From NCBI GenBank assembly GCA_964583985.1, contig CAZOYD010000074.1:1-15717 (forward strand): 15,717 nucleotides of DNA, written 5' to 3'. Both the position numbers and the translations under genes were made by a program. Positions 5,292-12,370 of this stretch are shown one piece after another. This stretch comes from an uncultured archaeon. GTDB taxonomy: Archaea > Asgardarchaeota > Lokiarchaeia > Sigyniarchaeales > SOKP01. The notes below the pieces were generated by a model. The model searched no databases, was not told the origin of the DNA, and worked only from the letters and a program-made list of their open reading frames with translations. The stretch's first letter is position 1; each line of letters begins with the position of its first letter.

Positions 5292-5442
5292 TCTAAAGGG
5301 GTTTAGCAATCGTTTCTATTTAATATAAGATAAAAAAGAATGTATACAATAATAATTAATTCTAATTGAAATGATTTAAACAGATAAAGTTAAAAATTCT
5401 AATGATAAATTTTATACAACAAATAATCAGTTAGAAAAAATC

Positions 5443-7515
5443 ATGAAAACAATAATTAAGAAGCATATTACTACAGTATTGGTAATCTCGGTTTTGCTGG
5501 TAATACCTTCAATTATCGGAGTAATTCCTAATTCTAATGAAGCCCGAAGAAGGTGGGTAAACGATTTACCTAGTTCATATGAACATTTGAATGATATTGT
5601 TAATGCTACCATCGGATATGAAGGTCGAAAAAATATATATTTGCACGATAGTAATCTAAGTAATGGATTCTATGCTCAGTCCACTCGAGTTTATTTAAAT
5701 ACGTCGGTAAATGAAGATTCCTTTACGGGTTCATTAAACAAGATAAATAACAGACAAGATACTGCAGACTTTGGGATGGCGGGAATATTAAGAACCATGT
5801 ACCTTGATAATGTTACTGAGGTCTTAGACCCAACTTTTAAGCTCCAATTAAAAAATGCGATTCTCAATTTTAAGTACTGGTTTACAGAACCTGGTCCATC
5901 CGATATGATAATGTGGACTGAGAATCACATGATACTCTTTCACTCGTGTGAGTTACTCGCAGGACAACTTTATCCTAATGAAACATTTATAAATTCTGGT
6001 ATGAATGGAACACAACATGTAAATCGTGTTTTACCATTAATTAATAGATGGATTGAATGGAGATCGCGTTATGGTTTTTCGGAATGGCATTCTGATATTT
6101 ATTATGAAGAGGATTTAATGGCCTTACTGAATTTGGTCGAATTTGCTAAAGATAATGATACTGCTACAAAAGCTGCGATGTTAGTAGATCTTTTCGCATT
6201 TGATTTCGCGAACAACTATTTTAAGGGGGCATATGCCACAACGAATGGTCGTACTGAGGATAATAAAAAAGTGGGAACTAGTTTAACTGATCTTCCTTCA
6301 AGAGCTTCTTTTGCAGAAGCAGCATGGATTTTACTTGGAGTCGGATACCACGATCCAAATGCAGGTAGTAGCATGTCAGCAGTAGCCTTATCTACCAGTG
6401 ATAAATACTTACCTCCTCCAATTTTAGAAGCGATTGCTAATGTAACCTTGGATTACAATGAGCATAAAGATAGAAACAGTATCAATATAGCAGATGGACC
6501 AAGTTATGGATTTGGTTACGAATCTGAAGATGATATGATGTTTTGGTGGCCAATGTCAGCAGTTTTTACAGGAGAAACTATTGAACCTTCATTAAATTTA
6601 ACCGAATATTACAACTTGGGATATGATACAGTATTTAATGATGAAATGCTTGTAGATCTAATAAAAGTTGCTGCGGATATTTATGGAATGAGCCTTCCAG
6701 AACTCTGCACGTTTCTGAAAGAAGCTACAGAAGGGGTAGTACTTGAGGAAGTAAATACATATACATACCGTACGCCATATTATCAGCTTTCTGGAGCCCA
6801 AGATCATCAGAAAGGGATGGGTGGATATCAAGAATATATATGGCAAGCTTCTTTAGATGAATATGCTTATATTTTTACTAATTCACAAGGAGGATTTCGT
6901 ATGGAGGATTATGTAGGGGGATTTAATCCTAGAGCAACATTTTATGAAAATGTGGGCGTTATTCAATATGATCGCCTTTCTCAGTCCTTAATCTTAGAAT
7001 TAGTATATCTCCTTTTAGAATTTGAACCGGTAATCCAGACTTATTTTCCTCGTTGGGCATTTGATGAAGTAATTCAACAAGGTAAGTGGATATTTGGAAG
7101 CAGATCGGGTGGTTATGTCGCTTTATATTCTGACGAACCTACATATTGGGAAACAGATTATGAACTTAGATCAGCTGGCAAAACAAATGCTTTTATTGTA
7201 GAACTTGGAAGTGTTGATGATTATGGTACATTCGAAAATTTTACATCTTCGTTATTAGCAACACAAGTAAGTGTTCAACATTTAGCTGTTGGGTATAATA
7301 TAGAATACGTGTCTCCTACTCAAGGTTTAGTAAAAGTAGCATGGAATGGACCTATGACTGTTGCGGGAGTACCTGTTGACTTAGGATCTTATGCTAAATT
7401 TGACAATGATTTCTGTCATCAAGAATTTAACACGTTAAGAACTACAATAGAATATTTGAACATGAAATTAGTGCTAGATTTTGAAAATGCTACGAGGACA
7501 TATACAGAAATATAA
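5443..7515 (+). CDS. Secreted or membrane-anchored hypothetical glycoprotein, 690 aa; possibly heparinase II/III- or polysaccharide-lyase-like fold
   Basis: Basic N-terminus followed by a hydrophobic segment (ITTVLVISVLLVIPSIIGVIP). Conserved-looking motifs WTENHMILFHSCELLAGQLYP and GFSEWHSDIYYEED. Helical N-half, beta-rich C-half, 11 N-x-S/T sequons. The fold assignment is inference. Confidence 0.75.
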   Translation: MKTIIKKHITTVLVISVLLVIPSIIGVIPNSNEARRRWVNDLPSSYEHLNDIVNATIGYEGRKNIYLHDSNLSNGFYAQSTRVYLNTSVNEDSFTGSLNKINNRQDTADFGMAGILRTMYLDNVTEVLDPTFKLQLKNAILNFKYWFTEPGPSDMIMWTENHMILFHSCELLAGQLYPNETFINSGMNGTQHVNRVLPLINRWIEWRSRYGFSEWHSDIYYEEDLMALLNLVEFAKDNDTATKAAMLVDLFAFDFANNYFKGAYATTNGRTEDNKKVGTSLTDLPSRASFAEAAWILLGVGYHDPNAGSSMSAVALSTSDKYLPPPILEAIANVTLDYNEHKDRNSINIADGPSYGFGYESEDDMMFWWPMSAVFTGETIEPSLNLTEYYNLGYDTVFNDEMLVDLIKVAADIYGMSLPELCTFLKEATEGVVLEEVNTYTYRTPYYQLSGAQDHQKGMGGYQEYIWQASLDEYAYIFTNSQGGFRMEDYVGGFNPRATFYENVGVIQYDRLSQSLILELVYLLLEFEPVIQTYFPRWAFDEVIQQGKWIFGSRSGGYVALYSDEPTYWETDYELRSAGKTNAFIVELGSVDDYGTFENFTSSLLATQVSVQHLAVGYNIEYVSPTQGLVKVAWNGPMTVAGVPVDLGSYAKFDNDFCHQEFNTLRTTIEYLNMKLVLDFENATRTYTEI

Positions 7516-7532
7516 TTTAATAGGTGAACAAA

Positions 7533-8402
7533 ATGAATAGAAAAGACTATATCTATGGAATGAAAATTTTTAATTGGATTAAAGGAGGTGTTTTAGCATT
7601 CATCGGAACATTAATATCGCGTTGGGGAATCGGAGTTGGTCGGTTTAATATAAATATCTATTTTGGGATACCCATCTACTTTTTAATCTCGTGTTCAGGA
7701 ATGTTAGTAGCATTAATTCTCAAGATTGAAGAATCACCGAATGAGAGAAAGGCGTTAAAATCTAAAAAGTTAGAAATAAGCAGTGCAGTAATATATGTTA
7801 TAGCATTTATAACATCAATTGTCCATACAATTTACTATAATTTAGAAGTATTGAATGTATTCCTATTAGCTATTATTGGTGTTGTGTGGTTTCTTTCAGT
7901 ATTTTATGGTAGATCGTGGAATAGAAAGACCCTACTTGCTAATATTCTTATAAGTTTATCTTTTTCATTTGGGATAATTTATGGAGCTGCAATTAATAGT
8001 AGTATTATACCATTCTCGATTTTTATATTCTTTGGAGCTATTTTTCTATTGCAATTCTCCAAAGATTTGATAAATGAAAGTAAGAATAAAGAAAAATACA
8101 CCAGAGCAGGTGTTTTCTCTCTTGCCACTATTTTAGGCGTTGAAAGAACTCGGAAGGTTTCATTTATCTTAGATTTGGTAGTTGTACTCTTACTCATCCT
8201 TCCATTCATCCCAGATTTTGTGTATTTACTTAGTATATTGTTTTACATGATTCCAGTCATTATTACCGTCATTTTACTTGGGATAGCTATGTTTTTAACT
8301 TATAAAATGAAAGCTGAAAAAACTTATTATAGAACCATTAAAATTCTATTAAGAATCGGAATGTTCCTCATATTTACAGGTTTAATACTCGCCTATTTTT
8401 AA
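7533..8402 (+). CDS. UbiA-superfamily (DGGGP synthase-like) polytopic membrane protein with degenerate Asp-rich motifs
   Basis: Multiple TM segments. WNRKTLLANILISLSFSFGIIYGAA and FSKDLINESKNKEKYTRAGVFSLATILG align by eye to DGGGPS segments (LKxxPLIGNxxVA...FGG; REIIKDxEDxEGD...G.xTLP..G). The GTG at 7524 is part of a GGTGA SD, so ATG 7533 is the likely start. Confidence 0.7.
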   Translation: MNRKDYIYGMKIFNWIKGGVLAFIGTLISRWGIGVGRFNINIYFGIPIYFLISCSGMLVALILKIEESPNERKALKSKKLEISSAVIYVIAFITSIVHTIYYNLEVLNVFLLAIIGVVWFLSVFYGRSWNRKTLLANILISLSFSFGIIYGAAINSSIIPFSIFIFFGAIFLLQFSKDLINESKNKEKYTRAGVFSLATILGVERTRKVSFILDLVVVLLLILPFIPDFVYLLSILFYMIPVIITVILLGIAMFLTYKMKAEKTYYRTIKILLRIGMFLIFTGLILAYF

Positions 8403-8413
8403 CTTAATAATTA

Positions 8414-8441
8414 TTTTTTATTTTTACTTAACTTTTTTTTT
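8414..8441 (+). terminator. Oligo-T archaeal-type terminator after the UbiA-like gene
   Basis: Several T runs, including a T9 at 8433-8441, just downstream of the stop at 8402. Confidence 0.5.
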
Positions 8442-8538
8442 CTTACATTCCTCTATTGATTAATTATAAAATCACGAAATATTTATTGAGAAATAATTCA
8501 AGAATATTTTATAAATTAACAAATACGAAAGCTACGAA

Positions 8539-9654
8539 ATGCCAACATGCCATAGGGTTTATTATAAGAAAGCACAAAAAATGGAAGAAATTGAAGACAG
8601 TTCTATTGCTTTAGTTATCACTTCACCTCCTTATCCGATGATAGAAATGTGGGATGAGATTTTTGCACTTCAGAATGAAGAGATTAAAGTAGCTTTGGAA
8701 GTTGGAGATGCTTCATTAGCATTTGAAAAGATGCATAAGGAGCTTGATAAAGTATGGTCCGAATTATATAGAATTTTGAAACCAGGTGGAATAATTTGCA
8801 TCAATATAGGAGACACTACGCGAACAGTAAATAAGAACTTTCAACTTTTTCCCTCTCATTCAAGAATTATTAATGCTTTTCAAAAACTTGGTTTCCAAAA
8901 TCTACCCGAAATATTATGGAGGAAACAAACTAATGCACCAAATAAATTTATGGGGTCAGGAATGTTTCCACCTGGAGCTTATATTACACTAGAACACGAA
9001 TATATCTTGATTTTCCGAAAGGGTGAAAAAAGAGAATTTAAATCAAAAGCTTTAAAGGAAAATAGAAGAGAAAGTGCATATTTTTGGGAAGAAAGAAATA
9101 TTTGGTTTTCAGATTTATGGGATTTTAAAGGAATTTCACAGGGACTAAACAATAAAGAAACTCGTAAAAGGAGTGCGGCTTACCCATTCGAACTAGCATT
9201 TAGATTAATAAACATGTTTTCAGTAAGGAATGACACGATTCTTGATCCTTTTCTTGGGACTGGAACGAGCTCATTGGCAGCTATGGTTTCAGAGAGAAAT
9301 AGTATTGGATATGAAATCGATAAGAATTTAAAAGAGAATATTAAAGAACGGTTTCTTCAAGTAATTCCATTTGGAAATAAATATATTGAAAATAGGCTTA
9401 ACTCCCATATTTCATTTATCACTGAAAGAATAAATGAAAAGGGACCGACAAAATATATAAATGAAAACTTAAATGTCTCAGTTATTACGAGTCAAGAAAA
9501 GGATTTAAAAATTAATATACTAAAATCAATTAAAGAGATTGACCAAGAATTTGTATTGAAATATAAGCAAATTGAATATAATTCAACATCGGATGACTTA
9601 AATAACAAAAAATTAATAGAAAAGAAATCTGCGTTGGATAAGTGGATTTCCTAA
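8539..9654 (+). CDS. Type II site-specific DNA methyltransferase, beta class, probably N4-cytosine (M.MthZI/M.MjaI-like)
   Basis: Motif IV ITSPPY precedes motif I DPFLGTGT (beta order), and SPPY is typical of m4C enzymes. Convergent with an MjaI-family endonuclease. TTTATAAA at 8508-8515 suggests a leaderless mRNA. Confidence 0.93.
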   Translation: MPTCHRVYYKKAQKMEEIEDSSIALVITSPPYPMIEMWDEIFALQNEEIKVALEVGDASLAFEKMHKELDKVWSELYRILKPGGIICINIGDTTRTVNKNFQLFPSHSRIINAFQKLGFQNLPEILWRKQTNAPNKFMGSGMFPPGAYITLEHEYILIFRKGEKREFKSKALKENRRESAYFWEERNIWFSDLWDFKGISQGLNNKETRKRSAAYPFELAFRLINMFSVRNDTILDPFLGTGTSSLAAMVSERNSIGYEIDKNLKENIKERFLQVIPFGNKYIENRLNSHISFITERINEKGPTKYINENLNVSVITSQEKDLKINILKSIKEIDQEFVLKYKQIEYNSTSDDLNNKKLIEKKSALDKWIS

Positions 9655-9657
9655 ATT

Positions 9658-10275
9658 TTAAAATAGAGTAGTTTGTTTTTTAGTTTTATAGAATTTATCC
9701 GGAATCTCAAAATTAATCCTATCCTTTTTTTTATCATAATAAATGATATCAATATTGATTTCTTCAGGTAATGCTTTTTTTTGCTTGTGGGTAATAGGTT
9801 TTATCTGAACTGGAGTTTCGTCTATAAATCCATCAATATTCTTTGATTCTTCTTCCGGGTATGCTAATCTTGTTTTGACTTTTAAATCCTCTCCTAATTT
9901 CTTGAGTATGATGTTTTGAATCTTTAATCCGAAGAAAGTTTTATTATATACTAAATCTTTAGCCCATTTTTCAATCATTTCGTCATTAATTAAATGAATT
10001 GCTTGCTTAAGGTTCTCCACCATTACGCTAATTCTACTTACAGCATTAGATATAGCAGTGGGATATTTTTCTTCATACCAAGAAACCCAATCTTCAAATG
10101 TTTCACCCTCAAAGTGTTGGATTAATTCTGATAGTTGACCTACAACTTTGGGTCTAGTACCTTGTGAATTTTGATTTGCTAGATTCATTATTTGGGTTGT
10201 ATACTTTGGAAATTCTTCTATCTTTATTTTAAATAATTTATAGATTTCTTCATTTTTTAAAACTAATTTAATCAA
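9658..10275 (-). CDS. MjaI/MthZI-family type II restriction endonuclease
   Basis: FPKYTTQIMNLANQNSQGTRPKVVGQLSELI N-terminus and a PD-(D/E)xK-like IDGFIDETPVQIKP. 205 aa, TTG start with AAGGTGGG SD, tail-to-tail with the MTase (3-nt gap). Confidence 0.88.
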   Translation of the reverse strand: MIKLVLKNEEIYKLFKIKIEEFPKYTTQIMNLANQNSQGTRPKVVGQLSELIQHFEGETFEDWVSWYEEKYPTAISNAVSRISVMVENLKQAIHLINDEMIEKWAKDLVYNKTFFGLKIQNIILKKLGEDLKVKTRLAYPEEESKNIDGFIDETPVQIKPITHKQKKALPEEINIDIIYYDKKKDRINFEIPDKFYKTKKQTTLF

Positions 10276-10330
10276 ATCCCACCTTATTTTTTTATTTTCT
10301 GGTGAAAATTTGATTTGTTAAGATTTAATA

Positions 10331-10419
10331 ATGTCTAATGAAATAGTTAGATTTCATAAGATATAATTAGATTTATAATGATCTCATTAGGAATTTTATA
10401 AAATGATAACAATTATCAT
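10331..10419. promoter_or_regulatory. Divergent REase/wHTH promoter region with inverted-repeat operators
   Basis: TCTAATGAAAT-N6-ATTTCATAAGA at 10334-10361 (10/11 match). Third half-site ATCTCATTAG at 10381-10390. Palindromic TATA ATTTTATAAAAT at 10393-10404. ATGATAA-CAA-TTATCAT at 10403-10419. Confidence 0.55.
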
Positions 10420-10425
10420 AATTTT

Positions 10426-10695
10426 ATGGAAAAGATAACATATTTGATTAGTGATATTTTAAAGCTAAAAATATTATATGCCCTCCAAGATAAAAAATTT
10501 CATACTCCATCAGAATTATCTATAAAGTTAAACACAAACGGTACAACCCTATTGAGGAATTGTAAATTTCTAAAACTTTTGAAACTTGTAGAAATTGATG
10601 TTAAAAAAACTAAGGGTATAAATTACTTTTTAAAATTATCTGAAAAAGGTCAAGATTTTGTACAAGATCATCCCAAAATACTTCAAGATATCTAA
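10426..10695 (+). CDS. Small winged helix-turn-helix (ArsR/MarR-like) DNA-binding protein
   Basis: LKILYAL...TPSELSIKL.TNGTTLLRNCKFLKLLKLVEI...YFLKLSEKGQ is the wHTH pattern. Divergent from the REase gene. Confidence 0.8.
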   Translation: MEKITYLISDILKLKILYALQDKKFHTPSELSIKLNTNGTTLLRNCKFLKLLKLVEIDVKKTKGINYFLKLSEKGQDFVQDHPKILQDI

Positions 10696-10713
10696 TTTGA
10701 ATCTTTTTTAATA

Positions 10714-10878
10714 CTAATATTCGATAAAAGAGAACTTTTTTTCCGATTCTTCTTCTATTTGGAACTCGTTCTTAAAATTGTTTATGACAGTATCTAAGAA
10801 TTTCTTAAAAATATCTGAATTTTGGTCAAAATCTTCATTAAGTTTGAATGAAAAACTCATTTTTATTATTTTAGTCAT
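10714..10878 (-). CDS. Possible 54-aa hypothetical protein
   Basis: Hand translation MTKIIKMSFSFKLNEDFDQNSDIFKKFLDTVINNFKNEFQIEEESEKKFSFIEY. Fills the gap convergent with the wHTH gene, with an AT-rich TATA-like element ~25-30 nt upstream. Below the ORF-track cutoff. Confidence 0.45.
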   Translation of the reverse strand: MTKIIKMSFSFKLNEDFDQNSDIFKKFLDTVINNFKNEFQIEEESEKKFSFIEY

Positions 10879-11038
10879 TTGATAACCACTTACTCACAAG
10901 ATCTTTTAATTAATAGGAACACGGCAAATTCTTTTGTTCTACATTAATGAGTTTAATTAGAACTTAAATATTTATACTACACTTAAAAATATATATTTCA
11001 TATGAGAGAAGTTAAATTGTAGAGGAGTGGAATAAAAT

Positions 11039-11082
11039 ATAACCGCTAATTTGATCAAATTATTGCTTGAATTAACGGTTAT
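11039..11082. repeat. Imperfect 20-4-20 inverted repeat with an overlapping perfect 16-bp palindrome, downstream of kamA
   Basis: ATAACCGCTAATTTGATCAA-ATTA-TTGCTTGAATTAACGGTTAT (16/20 match). TAATTTGATCAAATTA at 11047-11062. On the minus strand it is followed by ATTTTATT. Confidence 0.5.
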
Positions 11083-11131
11083 TAAAAGGGAGTTAAATAA
11101 TTAAGAGTGTAATATGTAAATCAATAATTTT

Positions 11132-12370
11132 TCATTTGGATAAGTTTCTTTTTCTGATATTTCTCTCCAAATCTTCAGGTTCTATTGTTATCTTTTCACC
11201 ACTTAGTAATGCTGATACACCAATTTGTTTTTCGCAATTTTCACAATGACAAATTGGTACATAATCTTTAGGTTCTTCATAGGTAGTAATGACACCTTCA
11301 AAATTCCTAAGTACAACCCGACTATTTCCTTGAGAAATTGTATAATCAGGCATAACAGGGATTTTACCTCCTCCGCCCGGAGCATCCACAACGAATGTGG
11401 GAACGCAAAGACCAGAAGTATGTCCTCTAAGACCCTCAATAATTTCAATGCCTTGAGCTACACTCGTACGAAAATGTCCGAGTCCAACAGATAAATCACA
11501 CTGATATATATAATAAGGTCTTACTCTTATCTTAACTAAATCTTGAACCAGTTTCTTCATAATATGAATACAATCATTAACTCCTCTCAAAAGAACTGAC
11601 TGATTTCCTAGAGGAATACCCGCATCAGCTAACATTGCGCAAGCCCGAGTGGAATCTTCTGTGATTTCATTTGGATGGTTAAAATGAGTATTAAACCAAA
11701 TAGGGTGATGCTGCTTTAGCATTTCACATAAGTCAGGAGTAATCCTTTGGGGCATAACTACAGGAGTTCTTGAACCTATTCTGATAATCTCAACATGAGG
11801 AATTTCTTTCAAATTAATTATAATTTCTTCTAACAACTTATCTGAAATTAGCAATGCATCACCTCCAGATAAAAGAACATCCCTTATAGAAGGGGTTTCT
11901 TTAATATATTCAATACATTTTTCAATTTGGTCTTTTGGAGGGGCCTTGTCATGATGTCCTGCAAATCTCCTTCGAGTACAATGTCTACAATACATGCTAC
12001 AATTCTCTGTTACGAGGAACAGAACTCTGTCGGGATAACGGTGGGTTAAACCAGGCACTGGAGAGTCAACTTCCTCATGAAGGGGATCCTCTAAATCACC
12101 TAGCTCTCTATGGAGTTCATGAATAGTTGGAATTGCTTGTTTGCGTATAGGATCATATGGATCGTGAGGATCTATTAAGGATAAATAATAGGGGGTGATA
12201 GCCATTCTCATTTTTTCTAAGATCCTTGGATCATCTTCTTCCTTCATCAATGGGATATATTGTTTCACTTCTTCGAGAGTTGTTATCCTATTTTTGAATT
12301 GCCATCTCCAATTATTCCAATCCTCATCTGAAATATGCCCAAATATTTCTTTTCGTCTATTTACTCTCAT
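11132..12370 (-). CDS. kamA: L-lysine 2,3-aminomutase (radical SAM, PLP)
   Basis: CSMYCRHCTRRR (CxxxCxxC), LTHRYPDRVL, LLSGGDAL, PLP lysine in DAPGGGGKIP, C-terminal Zn ligands CHCENC. Confidence 0.97.
   Translation of the reverse strand: MRVNRRKEIFGHISDEDWNNWRWQFKNRITTLEEVKQYIPLMKEEDDPRILEKMRMAITPYYLSLIDPHDPYDPIRKQAIPTIHELHRELGDLEDPLHEEVDSPVPGLTHRYPDRVLFLVTENCSMYCRHCTRRRFAGHHDKAPPKDQIEKCIEYIKETPSIRDVLLSGGDALLISDKLLEEIIINLKEIPHVEIIRIGSRTPVVMPQRITPDLCEMLKQHHPIWFNTHFNHPNEITEDSTRACAMLADAGIPLGNQSVLLRGVNDCIHIMKKLVQDLVKIRVRPYYIYQCDLSVGLGHFRTSVAQGIEIIEGLRGHTSGLCVPTFVVDAPGGGGKIPVMPDYTISQGNSRVVLRNFEGVITTYEEPKDYVPICHCENCEKQIGVSALLSGEKITIEPEDLERNIRKRNLSK

Follow-up and report, generated by a model that had tools for sequence, protein, structure and literature searches.

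A PIP-like C-terminal tail on a putative CTAG methylase of an Asgard archaeon, and clamp-type tails among its relatives

The methylase-nuclease locus

The window is a 15,717-nucleotide stretch of DNA from an uncultured Asgard archaeon (contig CAZOYD010000074.1 of assembly GCA_964583985.1), and it contains a DNA methyltransferase (methylase) gene that faces an MjaI-family restriction endonuclease (nuclease) gene. The two genes are convergent, with stop codons 3 nucleotides apart, and the interval 9622-9684 comprises the final 10 codons of the methylase and the final 8 codons of the nuclease. The methylase open reading frame (ORF) ends in ...NNKKLIEKKSALDKWIS, in which a charged linker, KQIEYNSTSDDLNNKKLIEKK, is followed by a peptide that resembles a PCNA-interacting peptide (PIP) box. 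The nuclease ORF ends in ...DKFYKTKKQTTLF. An initial annotation of the window had noticed KKSALDKWIS on the methylase, KTKKQTTLF on the nuclease and the charged linker, all of which are present in the translated ORFs, and had proposed that both tails are PIP-like and couple their enzymes to the sliding clamp. The comparisons described below argue that the methylase tail probably docks on PCNA, whereas the nuclease tail is a peptide of a different form.

The methylase matches the Pfam family PF01555 (N6_N4_Mtase) over the entire profile (positions 1 to 221 of 221; E 2.6e-42; 145.7 bits, with a cut-off of 26.7). Its TSPPYP motif (residues 28-33) precedes DPFLGTGTS (residues 236-244), which is the order found in beta-class enzymes. 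Because motif IV reads SPPY, a variant typical of N4-cytosine enzymes, the methylase probably produces N4-methylcytosine (m4C). The nuclease matches PF09568 (RE_MjaI) at profile positions 1 to 162 of 164 (E 1.1e-58; 198.2 bits, with a cut-off of 22.7). MjaI and MthZI cleave CTAG, and given the family name and the pairing with an MjaI-family nuclease, the two genes most likely form a CTAG/m4C Type II system. The CTAG sequence is the second most under-represented of the 256 tetranucleotides in the host genome (Markov-2 observed/expected ratio 0.67, approximately 4288 sites), a depletion that is not specific to this restriction-modification (R-M) system; GGCC is equally depleted.

Together with the gene for a small winged-helix protein, the methylase and nuclease genes make up a mobile Type II cassette that resembles MjaI and MthZI systems. 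Two metagenomic contigs (L202 and L203) carry the same three genes together at 84% identity, with the 89-amino-acid winged-helix ORF in the same position, and this ORF is missing jointly with the nuclease from genomes G254 and G246. Perhaps the winged-helix protein is the controller of the cassette. Features of the locus are collected in Table 1.

Homologues nearest to the methylase and to the host PCNA carry Lokiarchaeota or Promethearchaeota names, in agreement with the Asgard host suggested at the outset. The assembly (3.8 Mb in 138 contigs) contains a single PCNA gene, at L001:1024-1836 on the minus strand, and only this copy of the MjaI nuclease. A beta-clamp gene was sought as a DNA_pol3_beta match, and none is present in the host genome (completeness 100%).

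Table 1. Features of the methylase-nuclease locus, in window coordinates
Feature	Position	Strand	Basis or remark
DNA methyltransferase gene, 371 amino acids	8539..9654	+	Pfam N6_N4_Mtase; beta-class; M.MjaI/M.MthZI-like
Catalytic N6_N4_Mtase domain, residues 23-270	8605..9348	+	Pfam
Conserved C-terminal helix and beta-hairpin module, residues 271-344	9349..9570	+	AlphaFold2 model; end of alignment core
Charged linker of methylase, residues 345-361	9571..9621	+	Length and sequence variable among homologues
PIP-like motif KKSALDKWIS	9622..9651	+	PIP positions 4, 7 and 8 taken by L365, W368 and I369; K in place of Q
MjaI-family restriction endonuclease gene, 205 amino acids, TTG start	9658..10275	-	Pfam RE_MjaI
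RE_MjaI domain, residues 27-187	9715..10197	-	Pfam
Clade-specific nuclease extension, 18 residues	9661..9714	-	Ends KKQTTLF (9661-9681); QxxLF form, non-canonical as a PIP box
Winged-helix protein gene, 89 amino acids	10426..10695	+	Weak HTH_24 match

The methylase tail and its counterparts

The methylase tail resembles the ends of PCNA clients encoded by the same genome, in which the ends of all 3004 long ORFs were scanned for C-terminal patterns. The DP2 subunit of PolD ends in KIKQQKLSDFF, Fen1 in KKQISLDSFFK, PolB (QKDLVLFL) in SLQKDLVLFLEK, the Y-family polymerase in IQKDLLSYVND and a RadA-like protein in NMTLDCWF. A second XPG/Fen1 paralogue ends in RKIQKKLLEY, which is really a PIP box. 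The methylase peptide S-A-L-D-K-W-I-S has the same L-D-x-aromatic-hydrophobic pattern, placed one residue before the terminus. It combines a hydrophobic residue at position 4 with an aromatic-hydrophobic pair at positions 7 and 8, near the C terminus and after a linker, as is usual for PIP boxes.

Five other host proteins that are seldom listed as PCNA clients also have PIP-like ends. These are two DUF72 proteins (KQKKLTEYF and NQTSLKNFLT), a NUDIX hydrolase (RKGNLDSFLN), a deoxynucleoside/thymidylate-kinase-like protein (STQLTLNKFLSET) and a radical S-adenosylmethionine protein (KKRGIEYFL). Their genes lie at G000 C9:75294-76094, C19:591-1310, C17:9743-10165, C2:44412-45041 and C26:23451-24599 (L086, L089, L088, L084 and L090).

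To compare tails across the methylase family, 275 unique members were drawn from a protein search (120), labeled reference-genome loci (80) and loci from the phylum of the host (90). The sequences were aligned and each was cut at the end of the family core, which corresponds to Y342 of the methylase in the window. Extensions were counted if they comprise at least 12 amino acids, and motifs were scored in the last 12 residues, with Q..[LIVM][FL] or Q..[LIVM].[FL] taken as the beta-clamp pattern.

The type of motif follows the domain of the organism. Among the labeled archaeal members that have an extension, 14 of 37 end in a PIP-like motif and 1 of 37 in a beta-clamp motif; shuffled tails give a mean of 1.6 PIP-like motifs and a maximum of 8 in 2000 shuffles, an enrichment of approximately ninefold. 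The labeled bacterial members with an extension have no PIP-like motif (0 of 57) and carry the beta-clamp motif in 29 cases (shuffle mean 1.45, maximum 6). Fisher tests on this contrast give 3.5e-7 and 2.2e-7, values that are overstated because related sequences are not independent. When unlabeled members are also assigned to a domain by their nearest labeled neighbor, using the core only, 28 of 61 archaeal tails are PIP-like and 43 of 92 bacterial tails are of the beta-clamp type. Chance as the source of the methylase tail is therefore ruled out at the level of the family (14 observed, 1.6 expected).

Approximately 12 types of archaeal tail end in a PIP-like motif, and their linkers cannot be aligned with one another. 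Endings include KKSxLDxWIS, NLDKWRAAPND, KNLESWMNVSK, EFKLDKWI, QKSLSKFL, RKGLDSFME and QSTLDDWI, as well as NKGLLEYLA and NKGLFEWV in Sigynarchaeota, SLTNLSKWL in Hermodarchaeota, and NAPSLYNFF in DPANN archaea (Woese- and Nanoarchaeota). Bacterial homologues end in QQQLF, QLKLF, QLELF, QLDLL or QTSIGF, and the strict pattern misses some obvious variants, such as EKTLFDL, ELTLFDF, NQLF and QSLFSQV. Among cultured bacteria, the member from Desulfobacter curvatus DSM 3379 ends in a looser variant, ...PEGLLFPDFDLGS, and relatives of Desulfonema magnum also carry the motif. In a tree of the core, archaeal and bacterial clades are interleaved, and the DPANN copies with ..NFF ends adjoin a Desulfobacterales clade with QLxLF tails. 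A second methylase subfamily (L205 and L207, in genomes G165 and G228), with proteins of approximately 420 amino acids that are 33-35% identical, is found beside MjaI nucleases in other Asgard genomes and also has PIP-like ends: KSKDILSFI and KSKDILSYLNADS (SKDILSYL).

The clamp-docking idea for the methylase tail is well supported by this comparison, and this part of the initial annotation is probably right. A terminal peptide retained on changing linkers, of a type that switches with the clamp of the host, is the expectation for a clamp-docking short linear motif, and rival readings explain it only with difficulty.

Resident methylases of the archaeal family to which the host belongs (six genera, 50-55% identical) have another, conserved ending, K-x-[IV]-Q-S-R-L-[IL]-[PST], also on variable linkers (L148, L149, L153, L160, L162, L173, L174 and L175). 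It was observed 7 times, compared with 0.02 expected from shuffles, within a single clade. The ending matches the consensus of neither PIP boxes nor beta-clamp motifs, and it is closer to the QTTLF of the nuclease than to a PIP box.

The reading that we consider probable is that the methylase tail docks on PCNA and that clamp tethering is a trait of the family, refitted to the clamp of each host. The peptide S-A-L-D-K-W-I-S would be a short linear motif that follows the family core (residues 1-344) and a charged linker of approximately 20 residues. It would dock in the hydrophobic pocket beneath the interdomain connector loop of the single PCNA of the host, the pocket that receives the C-terminal ends of Fen1, PolB and PolD. 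The methylase could then ride clamps left on new DNA, and CTAG sites would be methylated soon after passage of the replication fork. Because bacterial members carry a QLxLF-type motif in the corresponding position, tethering seems to be common to the family, and after transfer of the gene between domains the tether would be refitted to the new clamp. Such a tether would be an accessory that is often gained and lost, with tail-less orphan copies persisting.

Structure prediction for a complex of the host PCNA (48-row alignment) and residues 318-371 of the methylase (18-row alignment) gave an interaction prediction score from aligned errors (ipSAE) of 0.43, 0.29 and 0.48 in three runs (median 0.43), compared with 0.00 for the best control. 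At least 73% of contacts agree among runs, and the predicted local distance difference test (pLDDT) score of the partner is at least 38. Of 80 solved complexes, 58 reach the ipSAE mark, as do 2 of 110 mismatched pairs; values of 0.60 or lower are found for only 7 of the 80 solved complexes, yet for both of the mismatched pairs that pass. The pass may be due to likeness to solved PIP-PCNA complexes that the model remembers.

Several observations weigh against docking on PCNA. The prediction just described is graded as weak support and reports no interface. An AlphaFold2 (AF2) model of the methylase (m637f508258c9; mean pLDDT 77.7) is well modeled through the strand at residues 337-344, with helices at 262-301, strands at 326-334 and 337-344, and coil at 345-351; it then places residues 352-370 in a lone helix with pLDDT near 70, which is not clearly a disordered tail. 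Position 1 of the motif is K362 instead of glutamine, a residue also missing from the PIP-like ends of two putative PCNA clients of the host, the RadA-like protein (NMTLDCWF) and the NUDIX hydrolase (KGNLDSFL). The loose pattern [QKRNS]xx[LIMV]xx[FWY][FWYLIMV], followed by 0-3 residues, fits 59 of the 3004 host ORF ends (2%), true PCNA clients included, so the match of the methylase taken alone is weak evidence. None of the 15 other DNA-methylase-like ORFs of the host (4 N6_N4 and 11 N6_Mtase matches) has the same tail. Finally, the tail is frequently absent. Extensions of at least 12 amino acids are lacking from 111 of 172 archaeal members, including copies in the cultured Lokiarchaeum ossiferum and Promethearchaeum syntrophicum and in Heimdall and Hod lineages. 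Of the 22 homologues closest to the methylase (83-87% identity), approximately 15 are without the tail. Genomes G254 and G246 have lost the nuclease and winged-helix genes together with the 3' end of the methylase gene, and in G251 (L212) a truncated nuclease accompanies a methylase whose tail is cut by a stop after ...KKSGLN.

Tail loss can be followed among genomes of the same genus, in which the methylase occupies the same site, between a UbiA-like gene and a lysine 2,3-aminomutase gene. The G254 copy (L104) has an in-frame TGA inside the linker. G253 encodes a tailed methylase in another context, beside which only the last 50 nucleotides of the nuclease gene are found. Most close homologues lack the tail and same-genus genomes have deleted it with the nuclease, which makes it an optional accessory rather than a conserved element of the methylase. 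Conservation in close homologues had been proposed as a test of the tail, and its outcome is divided: the motif recurs across archaeal lineages, but most relatives at 83-87% identity do not have it.

Across the phylum, 191 of 399 genomes encode a member of the methylase family, whereas only 9 of 399 have the MjaI nuclease, and in several of these 9 its gene contains internal stops. In Asgard archaea the methylase is thus mostly an orphan, and the complete cassette is the exception. A tie between the methylase tail and a neighboring nuclease was considered and is not seen, as clamp-type tails occur on orphan and paired copies in both domains. A Dam-type or C5 methylase was looked for in the host genome, and none was found.

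The nuclease tail and alternative readings

The nuclease tail does not share the properties of the methylase tail. Its end, KKQTTLF, stops at position 5 of the motif and has no aromatic pair at positions 7 and 8, so the proposal that this tail is PIP-like does not hold. Its likeness to the bacterial QLxLF motif, raised in the same annotation, is the better description, and the peptide fits Q-x-x-[LIVM]-[FL]. However, form and host are mismatched, as the host has no beta clamp.

Tails of this kind are confined to two small clades of nucleases. The archaeal clade has 7 members (support 0.99). One of them, 62% identical, ends in DNLVQNSTQKKLF on another linker, compared with DKFYKTKKQTTLF in the window, and a further member has the shortened linker DKFYKQTTLF. 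The other clade (support 0.95) ends in DEDQATLF or PPTLF and is not sister to the archaeal one; in the 121-sequence tree the two meet only at the root. In L197:3001-4916, the sole member of the second clade that was examined, the MjaI nuclease ends in ...DEDQATLF and the adjoining methylase in ...KPSLQQTLF, and both ends are of the beta-clamp type. This contig is probably bacterial, judging by its length of 5.4 Mb and by the genes near the pair, which encode GntR, ABC-transporter and gamma-glutamyltranspeptidase proteins. Assignment by the labeled sequences nearest to its methylase was ambiguous, as these are both archaeal and bacterial (62-66% identity). Pairs with clamp-like tails on both genes appear to have arisen at least twice. 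No similar nuclease tail was found beyond the two clades among 120 close homologues, 150 representatives (50% clustering) and 25 nucleases from labeled loci, and the nucleases that partner clamp-tailed methylases in Latescibacterota, DPANN archaea and another Asgard pair lack it. One distant nuclease ends in NEQALLLP.

QxxL-hydrophobic ends were also considered as a mark of host DNA enzymes and rejected. The host matches are mostly unrelated proteins, namely an ADP-ribosylglycohydrolase, a major facilitator superfamily transporter, an SBDS protein, a P-type ATPase and the second Fen1/XPG paralogue (QKKLLEY), and there is no support for a second host-wide motif class of the QxxL type.

It is quite possible, although we stop short of calling it probable, that the nuclease tail is an inherited leftover from a cassette of bacterial origin or a neutral read-through, and that the methylase alone is coupled to the clamp. 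The QxxLF form is bacterial and the host has only PCNA, and the interleaved tree indicates that the family moves between domains. The nuclease is also rare and decaying, as the counts of 9 and 191 among 399 genomes illustrate, and the final 50 nucleotides of its gene persist as a remnant in G253. However, the motif is retained across changed linkers within the archaeal clade. Moreover, the nearest relatives outside the clade are tail-less, so the tail was not simply passed on by them, and the QATLF clade is not sister to the archaeal one.

The proposal that both enzymes are clamp-coupled is unlikely by comparison. KKQTTLF would then be a minimal PCNA-docking peptide, restriction would be confined to clamp-loaded (replicating) DNA or regulated on it, and the two enzymes would compete for one pocket. 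The extension is kept within the 7-member clade, including the 62%-identical member and the member with the shortened linker, and the diverged nuclease is again paired with a methylase that has a PIP-like end, KKNLESWMNVSK. In the one copy examined of a second, probably bacterial, clade, a QATLF nuclease is combined with an SLQQTLF methylase. A Q..[LIM]F end followed by 0-2 terminal residues is present in just 3 of the 3004 host ORFs, a count for a pattern that was written after the tail had been seen. In addition, the clamp motif of archaeal EndoMS can work on a bacterial clamp (PMC6159521). On the other side, the aromatic pair that occupies the PCNA pocket is missing from QTTLF, none of the known host clients has such an end, and the host has no beta clamp to which the peptide might bind. 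Tails are essentially absent among approximately 300 other MjaI nucleases sampled. The archaeal clade is also shallow, with most members more than 84% identical, and within it one member ends in KSQSFIAK and two lack the final F. Thus, of the initial proposal that both proteins are clamp-coupled, the methylase half agrees with the family comparison, and the nuclease half meets a tail that is not PIP-like and belongs to a narrow clade.

A wider version, which we regard as doubtful, has the whole cassette coupled to the clamp through the PIP-like methylase tail, the minimal Q-x-x-L-F tail of the nuclease, and the K-x-I-Q-S-R-L-I-P tails of resident methylases as a related peptide. Host DNA would be marked when it is made, an invader would be cut on loading host clamps, and the arrangement would be a general cross-domain design of CTAG R-M systems.

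It is improbable that the methylase tail instead binds another partner (a replisome hub, the nuclease, the winged-helix protein, or DNA by means of a basic amphipathic helix) or matches by chance: the lone helix at 352-370, the dispensability of the tail, the 2% background of the loose pattern and the K-x-[IV]-Q-S-R-L-I-P ending of resident methylases, which fits neither clamp consensus, would suit such a reading, but orphan copies with neither a nuclease nor a winged-helix gene in the vicinity (P0053, P0025 and L109-L112) still have the motif, the family-wide excess over shuffled tails is large (14 against 1.6), and the bacterial switch to QLxLF is predicted by a clamp partner and has no obvious reason otherwise.

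Comparison with known systems and genomic setting

Sliding clamps organize polymerases, repair nucleases and, in eukaryotes, DNMT1. Polymerases, Fen1, MutS/MutL and NucS/EndoMS are textbook examples of proteins with clamp peptides. To our knowledge, prokaryotic DNA methylases are generally thought to reach their sites by diffusion. The novelty here would be putative clamp-client peptides, recognized by sequence, on a class of enzymes that is not known to carry them. No account of a clamp-binding motif was found for prokaryotic DNA methyltransferases or for Type II restriction enzymes in the full-text literature searched, the coverage of which mostly excludes subscription journals.

Archaeal PCNA clients, including Fen1, PolB, PolD DP2, Y-family polymerase, RNase HII and NucS/EndoMS, share with the methylase a terminal peptide after a variable linker, the L-x-x-aromatic-hydrophobic pattern and preceding basic residues. 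In contrast, the carrier in the window is a Type II R-M methyltransferase with K in place of Q, its tail is optional, and it is a putative client. The bacterial beta-clamp motif, QL[SD]LF or QxxLxF, was reportedly described by Dalrymple and colleagues in 2001 on Pol III alpha, Pol IV, MutS, MutL and Hda. The ends of bacterial methylase homologues match this motif, as does the QTTLF form of the nuclease, although the bacterial clients have a beta clamp and the host of the window does not.

NucS/EndoMS is the closest precedent for a motif that is matched to the host or acts across domains, as it is one family present in both domains with a C-terminal clamp peptide. Archaeal members use the motif with PCNA and actinobacterial members use it with the beta clamp (PMC6159521, PMC6159515), and the archaeal motif of EndoMS is partly functional in a bacterium (PMC6159521). 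Clamp binding and activation have been measured for NucS/EndoMS, whereas the methylase case is built on comparison of sequences and the MjaI nuclease tail occurs in two small clades.

DNMT1 binds PCNA in eukaryotes (PMC9690074) and is likewise a DNA methyltransferase brought to new DNA through a PCNA-binding peptide. It differs in being a C5 enzyme with an N-terminal motif that works with UHRF1, whereas the methylase in the window is an amino-methyltransferase that would act on CTAG in an R-M or orphan context. The parallel is one of analogy only, as the enzymes are unrelated in fold class and in how they are recruited, and there is no evidence of shared descent.

MjaI and MthZI systems and the CTAG methylases of Halobacteria belong to the same Pfam families (PF01555 and PF09568) and share the SPPY motif and the convergent two-gene layout. 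In Haloferax volcanii, a member of the Halobacteria, orphan CTAG m4C methylases target C(m4)TAG (PMC7776575). No report of a clamp motif was found for these systems, and the specificity of the copy in the window is presumed from them.

The family of CTAG methylases is large, with roughly 8000 members, and it extends across many bacterial phyla and approximately half of the Asgard genomes that were searched. If the tails do dock on clamps, replication-coupled methylation would exist in both Bacteria and Archaea and would have been re-invented with each change of domain by the gene. This would bear on how R-M systems avoid cutting their own DNA after replication, on how orphan methylases keep epigenetic marks and, by analogy and not descent, on prokaryotic forerunners of clamp-coupled methylation in eukaryotes. 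The idea can be tested with peptides and recombinant clamps, including those of cultured bacteria that bear the motif.

The cassette lies inside a variable 5.8-kb island (window positions 5310-11131) that is flanked by lysine-fermentation genes, with an aminomutase gene at 11132-12370 and kam-type genes below 5309. Gene content of the island differs among genomes of the same genus; G254, for example, lacks the gene for a 690-amino-acid protein, the UbiA-like gene and the nuclease. In the window, the 690-amino-acid protein is encoded at 5443-7515, has a hydrophobic N-terminal segment and gives no Pfam match at E 0.01.

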